Source: Escherichia coli
Lineage (GTDB): Bacteria; Pseudomonadota; Gammaproteobacteria; Enterobacterales; Enterobacteriaceae
DNA: 64,000 nt
NCBI RefSeq assembly: GCF_045037415.1
Contig: NZ_CP173438.1
Direction: 5' to 3' (one strand)
Shown: piece by piece, positions 652 through 50,470 of the stretch
How the letters are laid out: every line of letters begins with the position of its first letter
Numbering within the stretch: the first letter of the stretch is position 1
The notes under the pieces: model-generated
Database searches by the model: none
Seen by the model: the letters and a program-made list of their open reading frames with translations, nothing else
Told to the model about the DNA's origin: nothing
Made by a program: the position numbers and the translations under genes

Positions 652-1350
652 ATGATCATAAAAAAAAGCGGTGGTCGCTGGCAGCTAAGCCTGCTTGCGA
701 GCGTGGTAATCAGTGCCTTTTTTCTCAACACAGCTTACGCCTGGCAACAAGAATATATCGTTGATACGCAACCCGGACATTCCACAGAGCGTTACACCTG
801 GGATAGCGATCATCAACCTGATTACAACGATATTTTGTCGCAACGTATTCAAAGTAGCCAAAGGGCGCTGGGACTGGAAGTCAATCTGGCGGAAGAAACC
901 CCTGTGGATGTGACCAGCAGTATGAGTATGGGCTGGAATTTTCCTTTATATGAGCAGGTTACAACCGGCCCGGTCGCGGCATTACATTACGATGGCACAA
1001 CCACCTCGATGTATAACGAGTTTGGCGACAGTACTACCACGCTGGCCGATCCGTTATGGCATGCCAGCGTGAGTACCTTAGGCTGGCGTGTTGACTCCCG
1101 GCTTGGCGATCTCCGACCCTGGGCGCAAATCAGCTATAACCAGCAATTTGGCGAGAATATCTGGAAGGCGCAATCAGGCCTGAGCCGGATGACGGCGACA
1201 AACCAGAACGGCAACTGGCTGGATGTCACCGTAGGCGCTGATATGTTGCTCAATCAAAATATTGCTGCCTATGCTGCGCTATCTCAGGCAGAAAATACCA
1301 CTAACAATAGCGACTATCTGTATACGATGGGGGTTAGTGCCAGATTTTAA
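652..1350 (+). CDS. yhjY: YhjY, autotransporter beta-domain-like outer membrane protein
   Basis: ORF 646..1350 (GTG start in track); ATG at codon 3 gives 232 aa with a signal-peptide-like N-terminus, matching YhjY. Divergent from tag. Confidence 0.8.
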   Translation: MIIKKSGGRWQLSLLASVVISAFFLNTAYAWQQEYIVDTQPGHSTERYTWDSDHQPDYNDILSQRIQSSQRALGLEVNLAEETPVDVTSSMSMGWNFPLYEQVTTGPVAALHYDGTTTSMYNEFGDSTTTLADPLWHASVSTLGWRVDSRLGDLRPWAQISYNQQFGENIWKAQSGLSRMTATNQNGNWLDVTVGADMLLNQNIAAYAALSQAENTTNNSDYLYTMGVSARF

Positions 1351-1464
1351 CGTTATAGATACAATTGAAACCCATAAATAACAACTAATGTGGCGATAGT
1401 GGGGACTAACTTACTAAATAATAAATTTGGCGAATAATTGTCGAGTCATTCATTCCTGAACTAA

Positions 1465-1496
1465 TGCATTTCATTCCGTTCTGATGGCATTTCATG
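1465..1496 (+). promoter_or_regulatory. Direct repeat (GCATTTCAT, about 12-nt spacer, GCATTTCAT) upstream of yhjX; candidate YpdB response-regulator site
   Basis: Two copies of GCATTTCAT about 21 bp apart (start to start), roughly 85-115 bp upstream of the yhjX ATG. As I recall it, the published YpdB motif in the yhjX promoter is GGCATTTCAT-N11-GGCATTTCAT. Confidence 0.4.
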
Positions 1497-1578
1497 CCGT
1501 TTTTCCCCAGGCATAAAGCGCACTTCGTTATGGTTGTCAGCAGAGATTTTTCCTTTTTATTACTGCAGGAATACTGCC

Positions 1579-2787
1579 ATGACACCTTCAAATTATCAGC
1601 GTACTCGCTGGCTGACACTCATCGGTACTATCATTACCCAGTTTGCTCTGGGGTCGGTTTATACCTGGAGTCTGTTTAACGGTGCGCTTTCTGCCAAGCT
1701 GGGGGCTCCTGTAAGCCAGGTTGCTTTCTCTTTCGGCTTGTTAAGTCTGGGGCTGGCAATTTCGTCTTCTGTTGCGGGCAAATTGCAGGAACGTTTTGGT
1801 GTTAAACGCGTCACTATGGCTTCCGGCATTTTGCTGGGATTAGGTTTCTTCCTGACAGCACATTCCAACAACCTGATGATGCTGTGGTTAAGCGCCGGTG
1901 TGTTGGTTGGTCTGGCGGATGGTGCGGGTTACCTGTTGACGCTCTCTAACTGCGTGAAGTGGTTTCCGGAGCGTAAGGGACTTATCTCTGCTTTTGCTAT
2001 CGGTTCTTATGGTCTGGGCAGCCTGGGTTTTAAATTTATCGACACGCACCTGCTCGAAACGGTGGGTCTGGAAAAAACCTTTGTTATTTGGGGCGCGATT
2101 GTACTGGTGATGATTGTCTTTGGCGCAACGTTAATGAAAGATGCGCCGAAGCAGGAAGTGAAAACCAGCAATGGTGTGGTGGAGAAGGACTACACCCTGG
2201 CAGAGTCGATGCGTAAACCGCAGTACTGGATGTTAGCGGTTATGTTCCTGACTGCGTGCATGAGTGGTCTGTATGTGATTGGTGTAGCGAAAGATATCGC
2301 TCAAAGTCTGGCGCATCTTGATGCAATTTCCGCAGCCAATGCTGTGACGGTTATTTCCATCGCCAACCTTTCTGGTCGTCTGGTGCTGGGCATTCTGTCT
2401 GACAAAATCGCCCGTATCCGTGTTATCACCATTGGTCAGGTGATTGCGCTGGTGGGTATGGCGGCCCTGCTGTTTGCACCATTGAATGCAGTGACGTTCT
2501 TTGCAGCGATTGCCTGTGTGGCATTTAACTTTGGTGGCACGATTACGGTGTTCCCGTCACTGGTCAGTGAGTTCTTCGGCCTCAATAACCTGGCGAAAAA
2601 CTACGGCGTCATTTACCTCGGTTTCGGTATCGGCAGCATTTGTGGTTCGATTATCGCTTCACTGTTTGGCGGATTCTATGTGACTTTCTACGTGATTTTC
2701 GCCCTGCTGATTCTGTCACTGGCGCTTTCTACGACCATTCGCCAGCCAGAGCAGAAAATGTTGCGTGAGGCGCATGGCTCCCTTTAA
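1579..2787 (+). CDS. yhjX: MFS transporter YhjX (pyruvate-inducible)
   Basis: ORF 1534..2787 trimmed to ATG at 1579 (MTPSNYQRTRWLTL...), 402 aa, multi-TM MFS-like. Confidence 0.9.
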   Translation: MTPSNYQRTRWLTLIGTIITQFALGSVYTWSLFNGALSAKLGAPVSQVAFSFGLLSLGLAISSSVAGKLQERFGVKRVTMASGILLGLGFFLTAHSNNLMMLWLSAGVLVGLADGAGYLLTLSNCVKWFPERKGLISAFAIGSYGLGSLGFKFIDTHLLETVGLEKTFVIWGAIVLVMIVFGATLMKDAPKQEVKTSNGVVEKDYTLAESMRKPQYWMLAVMFLTACMSGLYVIGVAKDIAQSLAHLDAISAANAVTVISIANLSGRLVLGILSDKIARIRVITIGQVIALVGMAALLFAPLNAVTFFAAIACVAFNFGGTITVFPSLVSEFFGLNNLAKNYGVIYLGFGIGSICGSIIASLFGGFYVTFYVIFALLILSLALSTTIRQPEQKMLREAHGSL

Positions 2788-13330: not shown

Positions 13331-13438
13331 ATGACGCTCGCAGAGCTGGGCATGGCCTTCTGGCATGATTTAGCGGCTCCGGTCATTGCTGGCATTCTTG
13401 CCAGTATGATCGTGAACTGGCTGAACAAGCGGAAGTAA
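13331..13438 (+). CDS. ldrD: Ldr-family type I toxin peptide (35 aa), copy 1
   Basis: MTLAELGMAFWHDLAAPVIAGILASMIVNWLNKRK, the last 35 codons of ORF-track entry 13163..13438; LdrD-like small hydrophobic peptide. Confidence 0.85.
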   Translation: MTLAELGMAFWHDLAAPVIAGILASMIVNWLNKRK

Positions 13439-13488
13439 CGTGTCATGCGGGCGTCAGGCTGCCGTAATGGCAATTTGCGCCCGGACCA

Positions 13489-13522
13489 GGCCGCAGAGGT
13501 GAAACTCTGCGGCCTTTTTCGT
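13489..13522 (+). terminator. Rho-independent terminator after ldr copy 1
   Basis: GGCCGCAGAG-GTGAAA-CTCTGCGGCC hairpin followed by TTTTT. Confidence 0.6.
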
Positions 13523-13694
13523 AAGAAAAATGCAACGGTTGCAAGCGGATAATATTCTGCGGAATGCGCAGCACAGAGTGAAGAAGTGATAGATTCCGGA
13601 ACAGAAAAACAGTCGTAGAATCAGCGTCAAGCCGGAAGGGTTCCGGTGAGGCGCAATGTTGCGGGGGCTTAATCCCTGGTGGCATTGGTTGCTG

Positions 13695-13761
13695 GAGAGA
13701 GAAAACCCCCGCACGTTGCAGGTATGCACCTGACAACATCACGGGGGCTAATCTTGAACCT
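13695..13761 (-). ncRNA. rdlD: Rdl-type antisense RNA, copy 2, approximate bounds
   Basis: Same position within repeat unit 2 (+483 bp from copy 1). Confidence 0.4.
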
Positions 13762-13813
13762 GAACAACTCAAGAATAGCCGCGAAACGTTGTCATTACAA
13801 CACAGGCGGCTAT

Positions 13814-13921
13814 ATGACGCTCGCAGAGCTGGGCATGGCCTTCTGGCATGATTTAGCGGCTCCGGTCATTGCTGGCATTCTTGCCAGTATGATCGTGAGC
13901 TGGCTGAACAAGCGGAAGTAA
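13814..13921 (+). CDS. ldrD: Ldr-family type I toxin peptide (35 aa), copy 2 (N29S variant)
   Basis: MTLAELGMAFWHDLAAPVIAGILASMIVSWLNKRK, the last 35 codons of ORF 13679..13921. Confidence 0.85.
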   Translation: MTLAELGMAFWHDLAAPVIAGILASMIVSWLNKRK

Positions 13922-13971
13922 CGTGTCATGCGGGCGTCAGGCTGCCGTAATGGCAATTTGCGCCCGGACCA

Positions 13972-14005
13972 GGCCGCAGAGGTGAAACTCTGCGGCCTTT
14001 TTCGT
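13972..14005 (+). terminator. Rho-independent terminator after ldr copy 2
   Basis: Same hairpin plus T-run as after copy 1. Confidence 0.6.
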
Positions 14006-14177
14006 AAGAAAAATGCAACGGTTGCAAGCGGATAATATTCTGCGGAATGCGCAGCACAGAGTGAAGAAGTGACGGATTCCGGAGCAGAAAAACAGTCGTA
14101 GAATCAGCGGCAAGCCGGAAAGGTTCCGGTGAGGCGCAATGTTGCGGGGGCTTTATCCCTGGTGGCATTGGTTGCTG

Positions 14178-14244
14178 GAGAGAGAAAACCCCCGTACGTT
14201 GCAGGTATGCACCTGACAACATCACGGGGGCTAATCTTGAACCT
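14178..14244 (-). ncRNA. rdlD: Rdl-type antisense RNA, copy 3, approximate bounds
   Basis: Same position within repeat unit 3; one substitution in the GC stem relative to copies 1 and 2 (CCCCCGTACG versus CCCCCGCACG). Confidence 0.35.
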
Positions 14245-14296
14245 TAACAACTCAAGAATAGCCGCGAAACGTTGTCATTACAACACAGGCGGCTAT

Positions 14297-14404
14297 ATGA
14301 CGCTCGCAGAGCTGGGCATGGCCTTCTGGCATGATTTAGCGGCTCCGGTCATTGCTGGCATTCTTGCCAGTATGATCGTGAACTGGCTGAACAAGCGGAA
14401 GTAA
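14297..14404 (+). CDS. ldrD: Ldr-family type I toxin peptide (35 aa), copy 3
   Basis: MTLAELGMAFWHDLAAPVIAGILASMIVNWLNKRK, the last 35 codons of ORF 14129..14404; identical to copy 1. Confidence 0.85.
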   Translation: MTLAELGMAFWHDLAAPVIAGILASMIVNWLNKRK

Positions 14405-21775: not shown

Positions 21776-24115
21776 ATGAAAAGAAAAATATTCTGGATTT
21801 GTGCAGTGGCTCTGGGGATGAGTGCGTTCCCCTCTTTCATGACGCAGGCGACGCCAGCAACGCAACCACTGATCAATGCTGAGCCAGCTGTAGCCGCCCA
21901 GGCGGAGCAAAATCCGCAGGTGGGGCAAGTGATGCCGGGCGTGCAGGGCGCAGATGCGCCAGTCGTGGCGCAGAACGGTCCTTCCCGTGATGTGAAGCTG
22001 ACCTTTGCGCAAATTGCGCCGCCGCCGGGCAGCATGGTGCTACGTGGCATTAACCCGAACGGCAGCATTGAGTTTGGTATGCGCAGCGATGAAGTGGTGA
22101 CGAAGGCGATGCTCAACCTCGAATACACGCCATCGCCATCATTACTGCCTGTCCAGTCGCAGTTAAAGGTTTATCTCAATGATGAACTGATGGGCGTGCT
22201 GCCAGTGACCAAAGAACAGTTGGGTAAAAAAACGCTGGCACAAATGCCCATTAACCCGCTGTTTATTACTGATTTCAACCGTGTGCGGCTGGAGTTTGTC
22301 GGCCATTATCAGGACGTGTGCGAAAACCCGGCCAGCACCACGCTTTGGCTGGATGTTGGGCGGAGCAGTGGACTGGATCTGACCTATCAGACCCTGAATG
22401 TGAAGAATGACCTGTCACACTTCCCGGTGCCATTCTTTGACCCGCGTGATAACCGCACCAACACCTTGCCGATGGTCTTTGCGGGTGCGCCGGATGTTGA
22501 GCTGCAACAAGCATCTGCCATTGTCGCCTCGTGGTTTGGTTCGCGTTCTGGCTGGCGTGGGCAGAACTTCCCGGTGCTCTATAACCAACTGCCGGATCGC
22601 AATGCCATTGTCTTTGCCACCAATGACAAACGCCCGGACTTCCTGCGCGATCATCCGGCGGTAAAAGCCCCGGTGATTGAGATGATTAACCATCCGCAGA
22701 ATCCTTACGTCAAACTGCTGGTGGTGTTTGGTCGTGACGACAAAGACCTGTTGCAGGCAGCGAAAGGTATCGCTCAGGGTAACATTCTGTTCCGTGGTGA
22801 AAGTGTGGTAGTGAATGAAGTGAAACCGCTGCTACCGCGTAAACCGTACGATGCGCCGAACTGGGTGCGTACCGATCGTCCTGTCACCTTTGGTGAACTG
22901 AAAACCTATGAAGAACAATTACAATCCAGCGGTCTTGAGCCAGCAGCGATTAACGTTTCGCTAAACCTGCCGCCGGATCTCTACCTGATGCGCAGTACCG
23001 GCATTGATATGGATATTAATTACCGCTACACCATGCCGCCGGTGAAAGACAGTTCGCGGATGGATATCAGCCTGAATAACCAGTTCCTGCAATCCTTCAA
23101 CCTGAGCAGCAAACAGGAGGCGAACCGCCTGCTGCTGCGTATTCCGGTATTACAAGGTTTGCTGGATGGCAAAACGGATGTCTCTATTCCGGCGCTGAAA
23201 CTGGGCGCGACCAACCAGTTGCGGTTCGACTTTGAGTATATGAACCCGATGCCGGGCGGTTCGGTGGATAACTGTATTACCTTCCAGCCGGTGCAGAATC
23301 ATGTGGTGATTGGTGACGACTCCACCATCGACTTCTCGAAGTATTACCACTTCATCCCGATGCCGGATCTACGCGCCTTTGCTAACGCGGGCTTCCCGTT
23401 CAGCCGGATGGCGGATTTGTCGCAAACCATCACCGTGATGCCGAAAACGCCAAACGAAGCACAGATGGAAACCTTGCTGAATACCGTTGGCTTTATCGGT
23501 GCGCAGACGGGCTTCCCGGCGATTAACCTGACGGTGACCGATGATGGCAGCACCATTCAGGGCAAAGATGCCGACATCATGATCGTCGGTGGTATCCCGG
23601 ACAAACTGAAAGACGATAAGCAGATCGACCTGTTGGTGCAGGCGACCGAAAGCTGGGTGAAAACGCCGATGCGCCAGACCCCGTTCCCCGGTATTGTGCC
23701 GGACGAGAGCGATCGCGCGGCAGAAACCCAGTCAACGCTGACCTCTTCCGGTGCGATGGCGGCGGTGATTGGCTTCCAGTCGCCGTATAACGACCAGCGC
23801 AGCGTGATTGCGCTGCTGGCAGATAGCCCACGCGGTTATGAAATGCTTAACGATGCGGTGAACGATAGCGGCAAACGCGCCACCATGTTCGGTTCGGTCG
23901 CGGTGATCCGCGAGTCCGGTATCAACAGCCTACGTGTTGGCGATGTTTATTACGTAGGTCATCTGCCGTGGTTCGAGCGCTTGTGGTATGCGCTGGCAAA
24001 CCATCCGATTCTGCTGGCGGTGCTGGCGGCTATCAGTGTGATATTGCTGGCGTGGGTACTGTGGCGTCTGCTGCGTATTATTAGTCGTCGTCGTCTTAAC
24101 CCGGATAACGAGTAA
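21776..24115 (+). CDS. bcsB: Cellulose synthase periplasmic subunit BcsB
   Basis: ORF 21689..24115 trimmed to ATG at 21776 (MKRKIFWICAVALGMSAFPSF...), 779 aa with signal peptide and C-terminal TM anchor. Confidence 0.95.
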   Translation: MKRKIFWICAVALGMSAFPSFMTQATPATQPLINAEPAVAAQAEQNPQVGQVMPGVQGADAPVVAQNGPSRDVKLTFAQIAPPPGSMVLRGINPNGSIEFGMRSDEVVTKAMLNLEYTPSPSLLPVQSQLKVYLNDELMGVLPVTKEQLGKKTLAQMPINPLFITDFNRVRLEFVGHYQDVCENPASTTLWLDVGRSSGLDLTYQTLNVKNDLSHFPVPFFDPRDNRTNTLPMVFAGAPDVELQQASAIVASWFGSRSGWRGQNFPVLYNQLPDRNAIVFATNDKRPDFLRDHPAVKAPVIEMINHPQNPYVKLLVVFGRDDKDLLQAAKGIAQGNILFRGESVVVNEVKPLLPRKPYDAPNWVRTDRPVTFGELKTYEEQLQSSGLEPAAINVSLNLPPDLYLMRSTGIDMDINYRYTMPPVKDSSRMDISLNNQFLQSFNLSSKQEANRLLLRIPVLQGLLDGKTDVSIPALKLGATNQLRFDFEYMNPMPGGSVDNCITFQPVQNHVVIGDDSTIDFSKYYHFIPMPDLRAFANAGFPFSRMADLSQTITVMPKTPNEAQMETLLNTVGFIGAQTGFPAINLTVTDDGSTIQGKDADIMIVGGIPDKLKDDKQIDLLVQATESWVKTPMRQTPFPGIVPDESDRAAETQSTLTSSGAMAAVIGFQSPYNDQRSVIALLADSPRGYEMLNDAVNDSGKRATMFGSVAVIRESGINSLRVGDVYYVGHLPWFERLWYALANHPILLAVLAAISVILLAWVLWRLLRIISRRRLNPDNE

Positions 24116-39593: not shown

Positions 39594-39894
39594 AATCTTT
39601 TCTTATTTTTTGGCTAACGAATAGCCATATTACGCACAGCAAAAGTGATATTTCAATGTGTAACAAATCGCGGAAATGGTCAAAAATCAGGCAAAAAGGG
39701 AATAATGTTTAGGCCAGTGATTTTTCTTCTATGAAATGCTTCACATAATTTTATAAATGGTGGATTAAACTGGTTTTAGGTTAAATAAAAGTTACCAACT
39801 GGATTTATATGCTGGGGTTATGAGTTGGAATGAAATTGTTTGCTCCTGAATAGATGGCTAAAGAGGCTCTGGGAAAGAGTTTCAAGAGGTTATG

Positions 39895-48548: not shown

Positions 48549-49373
48549 ATGCAACCACTACATGGTAATTGTCTAATTGCGTACGCAAGACATAAATATA
48601 TTCTCACCATGGTTAATGGTGAATATCGCTATTTTAATGGCGGTGATCTGGTTTTTGCGGATGCAAGCCAAATTCAAGTAGATAAGTGTGTTGAGAATTT
48701 CGTATTAGTTTCAAGAGACACGCTTTCATTATTTCTCCCGATGCTCAAGGAGGAGGCATTAAAACTTCATGTACATAAAAAAGTTCCTTCATTACTCGTT
48801 CATCACTGTACCAGAGATATTCCTGTTTTTCAGGAAGTTGCGCAACTATCGCAGAATAAGAATCTTCGCTATGCAGAAATGCTACGTAAAAGGGCATTAA
48901 TCTTTGCGTTGTTATCTGTTTTTCTTGAGGATACGCAGTTTATACCGTTACTTCTGAACGTGTTGCAACCGAATATGCGAACACGAGTTTGTACGGTCAT
49001 CAATAATAATATCGCCCATGAGTGGACATTAGCCCGAATTGCTAGCGAATTGTTGATGAGTCCAAGCCTGTTAAAGAAAAAATTGCGCGAAGAAGGTACG
49101 TCATATTCACAGTTGCTTACTGAGTGTAGGATGCAGCGTGCTTTACAACTTATTGTTATATATGGGGTTTCAATTAAGCGAGTTGCAGTATCCTGTGGAT
49201 ATCACAGCGTGTCGTATTTCATTTACGTTTTTCGAAATTATTATGGGATGACGCCCACAGAGTATCAGGAGCGATCGGCGCAGGAATTACCGAACTGTGG
49301 CTCGGCGGCAAGTATGGCTGCGCAAGGGATTTTTTACGGCACTGACCGTTCTGCGGAAGGAATAAGATTATAG
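48549..49373 (+). CDS. gadX: AraC-family acid resistance regulator GadX
   Basis: 274 aa (MQPLHGNCLIAYARHKYILTMVNGEYRYFNGGDLVFADASQIQ...), C-terminal AraC HTH. Confidence 0.95.
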   Translation: MQPLHGNCLIAYARHKYILTMVNGEYRYFNGGDLVFADASQIQVDKCVENFVLVSRDTLSLFLPMLKEEALKLHVHKKVPSLLVHHCTRDIPVFQEVAQLSQNKNLRYAEMLRKRALIFALLSVFLEDTQFIPLLLNVLQPNMRTRVCTVINNNIAHEWTLARIASELLMSPSLLKKKLREEGTSYSQLLTECRMQRALQLIVIYGVSIKRVAVSCGYHSVSYFIYVFRNYYGMTPTEYQERSAQELPNCGSAASMAAQGIFYGTDRSAEGIRL

Positions 49374-49741: not shown

Positions 49742-50470
49742 ATGGCTCATGTCTGCTCGGTGATCCTCGTTCGTCGTTCATTCGATATTCATCATGAACA
49801 GCAAAAAATATCGTTGCATAACGAGAGTATCCTGCTGCTGGATAAAAATTTGGCAGACGATTTTGCGTTTTGTTCACTGGATACGCGACGGCTGGATATC
49901 GAAGAGCTGACAGTTTGCCATTACTTACAAAATATTCGTCAGTTGCCACGCAATTTAGGATTGCATAGCAAAGACCGTTTGTTAATTAACCAGTCACCCC
50001 CCATACAGCTGGTGACGGCGATTTTTGATAGTTTCAATGACCCCCGGGTCAATTCGCCGATACTGAGCAAAATGCTCTATCTTTCCTGTTTATCAATGTT
50101 TTCTCATAAGAAAGAACTGATCCCCTTACTTTTCAATAGTATCAGTACTGTTTCAGGAAAAGTTGAACGCCTTATTAGCTTTGATATCGCTAAACGTTGG
50201 TATCTACGCGATATCGCAGAAAGAATGTACACCAGCGAGAGTCTCATCAAAAAAAAGTTGCAGGATGAAAATACCTGTTTCAGTAAAATATTACTCGCCT
50301 CCAGGATGTCGATGGCCAGACGATTACTCGAGTTACGTCAAATACCTCTGCATACTATTGCGGAAAAATGTGGCTATAGCAGTACGTCATACTTTATAAA
50401 TACATTTAGACAATATTATGGTGTAACGCCACATCAGTTTTCGCAACATTCGCCGGGTACCTTTTCCTGA
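49742..50470 (+). CDS. gadW: AraC-family acid resistance regulator GadW
   Basis: 242 aa (MAHVCSVILVRRSFDIHHEQQKISLHNESILLLDKN...), C-terminal AraC HTH. Confidence 0.95.
   Translation: MAHVCSVILVRRSFDIHHEQQKISLHNESILLLDKNLADDFAFCSLDTRRLDIEELTVCHYLQNIRQLPRNLGLHSKDRLLINQSPPIQLVTAIFDSFNDPRVNSPILSKMLYLSCLSMFSHKKELIPLLFNSISTVSGKVERLISFDIAKRWYLRDIAERMYTSESLIKKKLQDENTCFSKILLASRMSMARRLLELRQIPLHTIAEKCGYSSTSYFINTFRQYYGVTPHQFSQHSPGTFS

Follow-up and report, generated by a model that had tools for sequence, protein, structure and literature searches.

The intergenic region in front of yhjX raises the question whether a short direct repeat lying in it is the operator at which the YpdA/YpdB system acts, and whether this control is conserved in the Escherichia coli strain from which the DNA originates. 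Both had been suggested in a preliminary description made from the nucleotide letters. The DNA analysed comprised 64,000 nucleotides of contig NZ_CP173438.1, and this whole stretch is referred to as the window. The K-12 annotation and recent publications now call the YpdA/YpdB pair PyrS/PyrR.

Arrangement of the direct repeat upstream of yhjX

A motif search of the window disclosed exact copies of GCATTTCAT on the + strand at positions 1466-1474 and 1487-1495, at distances of 113 nt and 92 nt, respectively, from the yhjX start codon (1579). Both copies reside within the 228-nt intergenic region between yhjY and yhjX. Thus, the two-copy direct repeat that had been described upstream of yhjX was borne out, as the sequence is exact at both sites. 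The spacing had been given as approximately one and a half helical turns, which is wrong. The copies are separated by 21 bp from start to start (a gap of 12 nt between the 9-mers), which equals two turns of B-DNA and places both sites on the same face of the helix. The repeat extends beyond 9 nt, since 14 out of 15 positions match in GCATTTCAT[T/G]CCGTT, and the repeat unit amounts to 12 nt if the conserved extensions are counted. The elements of the region are as follows:

652..1350, + strand: yhjY, upstream neighbour bounding the intergenic region (annotation of an identical genome)
1445..1456, + strand: box 0, a third, degenerate repeat, GTCATTCATTCC, 9/12 match to GCATTTCATKCC
1465..1477, + strand: YpdB site A, located upstream and acting as the priming site; its 10-mer as published (1465-1474) reads TGCATTTCAT here, GGCATTTCAT in K-12; conserved core plus extension 1466-1477 (+ strand), GCATTTCATTCC
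1486..1503, + strand: YpdB site B, promoter-proximal and of lower affinity; 10-mer 1486-1495, GGCATTTCAT; conserved extension GCC (1496-1498) and TTTT (1500-1503)
1510..1521, - strand: degenerate inverted box, GGCATAAAGCGC, 9/12 match to GGMATGAAATGC
1529..1534, + strand: predicted -10 hexamer TATGGT, proposed from conservation
1565..1578, + strand: 5' UTR element GCAGGAATACTGCC, directly before the AUG, containing the Shine-Dalgarno sequence AGGA (1567-1570)
1579..2787, + strand: yhjX, the regulated gene, an MFS transporter of 402 aa (PF07690; WP_000189046.1)

A genome identical over the first 25 kb of the window is annotated with yhjY and yhjX at these coordinates, which confirms them.

By themselves, the repeat statistics are weak and do not establish significance. 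Counting exact direct repeats of 9 nt or more with a spacing of 10-32 nt gave 10 in the window and 2-9 in dinucleotide shuffles, and 2% of the shuffles of the intergenic region yielded an exact direct repeat of this kind. With up to three mismatches allowed, the paired pattern is expected 0.14 times per window. Besides the operator pair, the window contains only two copies of GCATTTCAT, one antisense within bcsB (23838-23846) and one in an AT-rich stretch lacking a partner site (39731-39739), both of which were regarded as chance occurrences. We took the feature as real because of its conservation and the published binding data, not because of the improbability of the repeat.

Correspondence to the published YpdB sites

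In the yhjX promoter of K-12, the YpdB sites A and B have been described as GGCATTTCAT, occurring twice with an 11-bp spacer (PMC4847170). The 58-nt fragment used in that study for surface plasmon resonance (SPR) corresponds to window positions 1442-1499, and the published sites coincide with positions 1465-1474 (A) and 1486-1495 (B). Hence, the comparison with the published YpdB site led to exactly the same place and not elsewhere. Site B matches the 10-mer at all ten positions, site A at nine out of ten (T at position 1), and the two 10-mers are separated by the same 11-bp spacer.

An alignment with K-12 MG1655 demonstrated that the motif is present at the corresponding position there. The operator lies at the orthologous position within the gene order tag-yhjY-yhjX-eptB, as in K-12, and locus, orientation, 21-bp period and flanks are the same, with site B being identical. 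Of the operator fragment, 57 out of 58 bases from 1443 on are shared with K-12, noted differences aside. The window differs from K-12 at 1465 (T; G in K-12) and at 1444 (A; C in K-12), and two more single-base differences are located downstream at 1519 and 1539. Thus, three differences (1465, 1519, 1539) fall within the 137 nt from box 0 to the ATG (1445 on), and 15 differences were counted in the 94 nt upstream of 1445.

The binding data obtained by SPR refer to these bases. The intact fragment gave two binding events (1.2 nM and 21 nM), the fragment with a mutated site B still bound YpdB in one event (KD 23 nM), and mutation of site A abolished all YpdB binding; flanking nucleotides are stated to influence expression in vivo (PMC4847170). 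In K-12, YpdA (PyrS) is the kinase that is activated by external pyruvate and in turn activates YpdB. One YpdB binds to site A with high affinity, which is required for the binding of a second YpdB to site B, upon which yhjX is transcribed. According to the 'AB-BA' model, clearance after yhjX transcription is rapid from B and slower from A (PMC4847170). Judged from the coincidence of the bases, it is very probable that the repeats are the published YpdB (PyrR) operator of yhjX, and that the regulation can be expected to be kept in this strain. The operator as such is already known, and what the window contains is an ordinary regulatory site in the form of a common natural one-base variant.

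Presence of the regulator genes

Many ST131 genomes, among them JJ1887, JJ2434 and O25b:H4, match the first 25 kb of the window with 100% identity. None of ypdA, ypdB and ypdC was found by tblastn within the 64-kb window. The suggestion that ypdAB should be located elsewhere in the genome was followed up in NZ_CP015085.1 (ST131 O25b:H4), which agrees with window positions 1-25000, the yhjX region included, at 100% identity. There, ypdA-ypdB-ypdC is intact, and from this identical relative we infer the presence of the genes in the strain under study. Compared with K-12, the products in NZ_CP015085.1 differ only by R232C (YpdB) and I246M (YpdA). Matches to ypdA and ypdB were obtained in 5422 out of 5426 complete E. 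coli genomes. As the published SPR sites are these very bases and ypdAB is intact in the identical relative, the proposal that YpdB control of yhjX is conserved was supported.

The only tblastn matches in the window resembled YpdC and were located between 48987 and 50458, but they showed only AraC-type similarity and were rejected as ypd genes. They comprise two AraC-type coding regions (48987-49274 and 50231-50458) with 30-32% identity to YpdC, which are probably unrelated AraC-family regulators of the chromosomal region. At window positions 13331-14404, the annotation of the identical genome shows three type I toxin genes of the Ldr family in tandem.

Conservation among Enterobacteriaceae

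One genome per species was scanned for the exact paired pattern, which yielded at least 120 loci. In at least 27 other genomes of the Enterobacteriaceae, the paired box is located approximately 113 nt before a YhjX homologue (82-99% identity). As both 9-mers were fixed by the search, only the other columns of this comparison are informative, and it does not describe the tolerance inside the 9-mers. Among the matches listed, 29 yhjX promoters were compared. In all 29, the TCC following site A (1475-1477), which was not constrained by the search, is invariant, as are positions 1496-1498 and 1500-1503 following site B. These data refine the conserved core to GCATTTCAT(T/G)CC, preceded by a G/T base. 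Of the 120 pattern matches listed, about 80 had neither a yhjX homologue nor an adjacent LytTR regulator nearby, and many of them lay inside open reading frames; these matches were set aside as chance or unrelated.

Predicted core promoter and 5' untranslated region

Within the hexamer TATGGT at 1529-1534, the first two bases (TA) are invariant in a MAFFT alignment of the 29 promoters among the matches listed, and we regard this hexamer as the putative -10 element. The presumptive -35 position (1506-1511) reads CCCAGG and is without consensus. A consensus scan of positions 1300-1650 for sigma-70 promoters and terminators revealed no sigma-70 site at this hexamer and no terminator; its sole match, a weak promoter-like site at 1337-1365, is unrelated. 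The lack of both a -35 consensus and a consensus promoter fits an activator-dependent promoter. Transcription of yhjX is predicted to start near 1541, in which case the centres of sites B and A would fall near -48 and -69, respectively. A distance of 33 nt separates the end of site B, just upstream of the predicted -35 position, from TATGGT. In such an arrangement, YpdB would occupy two sites offset by 21 bp on one side of the DNA, and the bound protein would recruit RNA polymerase from the position centred near -48.

Between the predicted start and the gene, the element GCAGGAATACTGCC (1565-1578) shows hardly any variation, and a 4-bp hairpin could form in it. Folding of the 5' UTR revealed no covariation for this hairpin, and no structure is proposed. 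In such a hairpin, the sequence GCAGGA-N3-CUGCC right before the yhjX AUG would display GGA over the Shine-Dalgarno sequence, in resemblance to a CsrA-type site.

Occurrence beyond the Enterobacteriaceae and related systems

Among the matches listed, the same 30-nt pattern was found directly after ypdA-ypdB homologues in several other groups. Thus, the identical GCATTTCAT-N12-GCATTTCAT occurs beside LytS/LytTR pairs in Firmicutes, in a spirochaete and in Chromobacterium. The loci, with the similarity of the encoded proteins to YpdA and YpdB of E. coli and the element following the motif, are:

Five Paenibacillus species (L022, L024, L028, L074, L112): YpdA 56-63%, YpdB 58-61%; next, an MFS protein 46-48% identical to YhjX
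Romboutsia (L063): YpdA and YpdB approximately 52%; next, a CstA-family transporter
Spirochaeta MAG (L047): YpdA and YpdB approximately 35%; next, a CstA-family transporter
Two Limosilactobacillus species (L016, L083): YpdA 32%, YpdB 35%; next, an LrgA-family protein
Chromobacterium (L106): YpdA 56%, YpdB 60%; the locus stops 186 bp downstream of the motif
Clostridium arbusti (L013): YpdA 59%, YpdB 57%; no ORF of at least 60 aa after the motif
Clostridiales UMGS1958: no ypdA-ypdB pair upstream; next, a LytTR response regulator gene

One operator hence serves three unrelated transporter families (MFS, CstA and LrgA). At most of the loci (Paenibacillus, Spirochaeta, Romboutsia, Chromobacterium, Blautia and Clostridiales), a TATAAT-like hexamer is located 31-33 nt after site B, as in E. 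coli. The constancy of this distance across phyla supports the assignment of the -10 element and a fixed geometry of activation.

E. coli itself possesses a paralogous pyruvate-sensing LytS/LytTR system, whose response regulator BtsR (YehT) acts on btsT/yjiY, likewise by a direct-repeat operator and with a single transporter gene as target. The recognition sequence of BtsR differs from that of YpdB, as it reads ACC[G/T]CT[C/T]A with a 13-bp spacer. In Bacillus subtilis, LytT binds at pftAB (ysbAB) to two direct boxes with a period of 21 bp (13 nt + 8 nt), both of which are required, and the LytS/LytTR pair of this species also responds to pyruvate and controls a pyruvate transporter (PMC5626966). 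The B. subtilis target is of the LrgA/LrgB type and not an MFS protein, and its site was compared with the YpdB site by the layout of the boxes. Furthermore, the regulator genes of B. subtilis adjoin their target, whereas ypdAB of E. coli lies approximately 1.2 Mb from yhjX. Charbonnier et al. 2017 (PMC5626966) had previously pointed out the similarity of the YpdB site to the LytT box, and the conservation across phyla is therefore only partly new. With exact 9-nt repeats and a 12-nt gap, the yhjX operator shows the LytTR architecture of two 9-11-nt repeats lying 11-13 nt apart, which is shared by the AgrA sites at P2/P3 of Staphylococcus aureus (PMC4847170). Those sites adjoin the -35 region and the DNA bends on binding (PMC4847170). 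Sequence, signal and regulon of AgrA are unrelated to those of YpdB.

The base at position 1465

The T at 1465, where K-12 has G, occupies position 1 of the published 10-mer of site A and had not been remarked in the preliminary description. By use of an exact 60-mer covering the operator, the T allele was detected in 1626 and the G allele in 3606 complete E. coli genomes; with at most about one mismatch, the 60-mer matched 5413 out of 5426 genomes. Among the matches listed, the 29 promoters of the Enterobacteriaceae have G (20 promoters) or T (nine promoters) at 1465, and T (19) or G (10) at the equivalent base before site B (1486). In Paenibacillus, this position is also G or T. Since the position is naturally occupied by either base, regulation of yhjX is expected to be retained with the T allele, and the T is probably equivalent to G in function. 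As read from these alignments, the 9-mer of the preliminary description captures the conserved core more accurately than the published 10-mer.

The intergenic region of the strain UTI89 is identical to that of the window at all 231 aligned columns, and the YhjX protein of both has the accession WP_000189046.1. In UTI89, the surge of the chromosomal yhjX transcript, determined by RT-qPCR, was lost in a btsS ypdB double mutant, in which the contribution of YpdB was not isolated (PMC9765748). Though obtained with a double deletion, this result is the nearest to direct evidence for this exact allele. A divergent case was noticed in E. coli DX6 (NZ_CP126345.1, approximately 179345-179392, corresponding to window 1446-1493), where the match to the operator ends inside site B and a longer query from the intergenic region hit the record at two separate places. 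This suggests that in DX6 alone the operator may be disrupted by an insertion or a rearrangement.

Additional boxes around the operator

Two further elements resemble the repeat unit. In all 29 promoters among the matches listed, box 0 precedes site A by exactly 21 bp, with 8-10 matches out of 12. It contains seven invariant columns, the spacers on either side are variable, and it was unconstrained by the search. It is also included in the published SPR fragment. Box 0 might function as an auxiliary YpdB contact or as a flanking determinant, and it may represent the flanking nucleotides that were said to matter in Fried et al. 2013. The inverted box is situated between the presumptive -35 and -10 positions. 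Among the matches listed, it is a perfect GGCATGAAATGC in seven species and matches at 10 out of 12 positions in K-12, where the base at 1519 within this box differs from that of the window (9/12). In approximately ten species, no match of eight or more was found at the same offset among the matches listed.

Alternative explanations

It is extremely improbable that the repeat arose by chance or has no regulatory role, or that it serves a regulator different from YpdB. Exact 9-nt direct repeats at such a spacing are indeed not rare in this DNA, as seen in the comparison with shuffled sequences, and the large share of pattern matches without a yhjX homologue or LytTR neighbour points in the same direction; yet this reading is contradicted by the direct binding of YpdB to these bases in the SPR experiments, by the conserved distance from yhjX in the other Enterobacteriaceae and by the co-location with ypdAB homologues in other phyla. 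The idea that the operator is functionally altered deserves somewhat more attention. The T at 1465 might weaken site A or change the binding kinetics, resulting in a pyruvate threshold or a pulse shape different from K-12. The change lies inside the published 10-mer of the site on which all binding depends, the T is a fixed allele shared by 1626 genomes, ST131 and UTI89 among them, and not a sporadic mutation, and further differences from K-12 reside in the core, one in the inverted box (1519) and one near the predicted start (1539). However, with G and T alternating at both sites across the Enterobacteriaceae, and in Paenibacillus as well, the base seems degenerate and not specifically contacted, and native yhjX is strongly induced in UTI89. 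We consider such an alteration rather unlikely and retain the view that the sites form a working YpdB operator.

It is less clear how far this operator extends. The functional unit could be larger than sites A and B and consist of a phased array of three direct boxes (starting at 1445, 1466 and 1487), possibly together with the inverted box at 1510-1521 over the core promoter. The strict 21-bp phase of box 0 with its invariant columns beside variable spacers, the perfect inverted box in seven species and the in vivo influence of flanking nucleotides (PMC4847170) are consistent with such an array. On the other hand, the SPR fragment containing box 0 and site B but a mutated site A did not bind YpdB, only two binding events were resolved by this method, and two boxes suffice for LytT of B. 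subtilis. In addition, the inverted box is missing in approximately ten species and degenerate in E. coli, and the conservation of box 0 could reflect another factor or a requirement for DNA shape. We therefore regard a larger operator as possible but doubtful. It is a still more speculative thought, which we judge unlikely, that the phased array and the T allele of ST131 and UTI89 could together adjust the pulse-like yhjX induction of extraintestinal pathogenic E. coli in a way that differs from K-12.

Meaning of the yhjX operator

For this ST131-like strain, the data indicate that the textbook link from pyruvate via YpdA/YpdB to yhjX is intact, which matters little in itself. The additions are useful mainly for work on LytTR regulators, namely a third phased box that is as conserved as the two known sites, and a fixed distance between operator and -10 hexamer across phyla.
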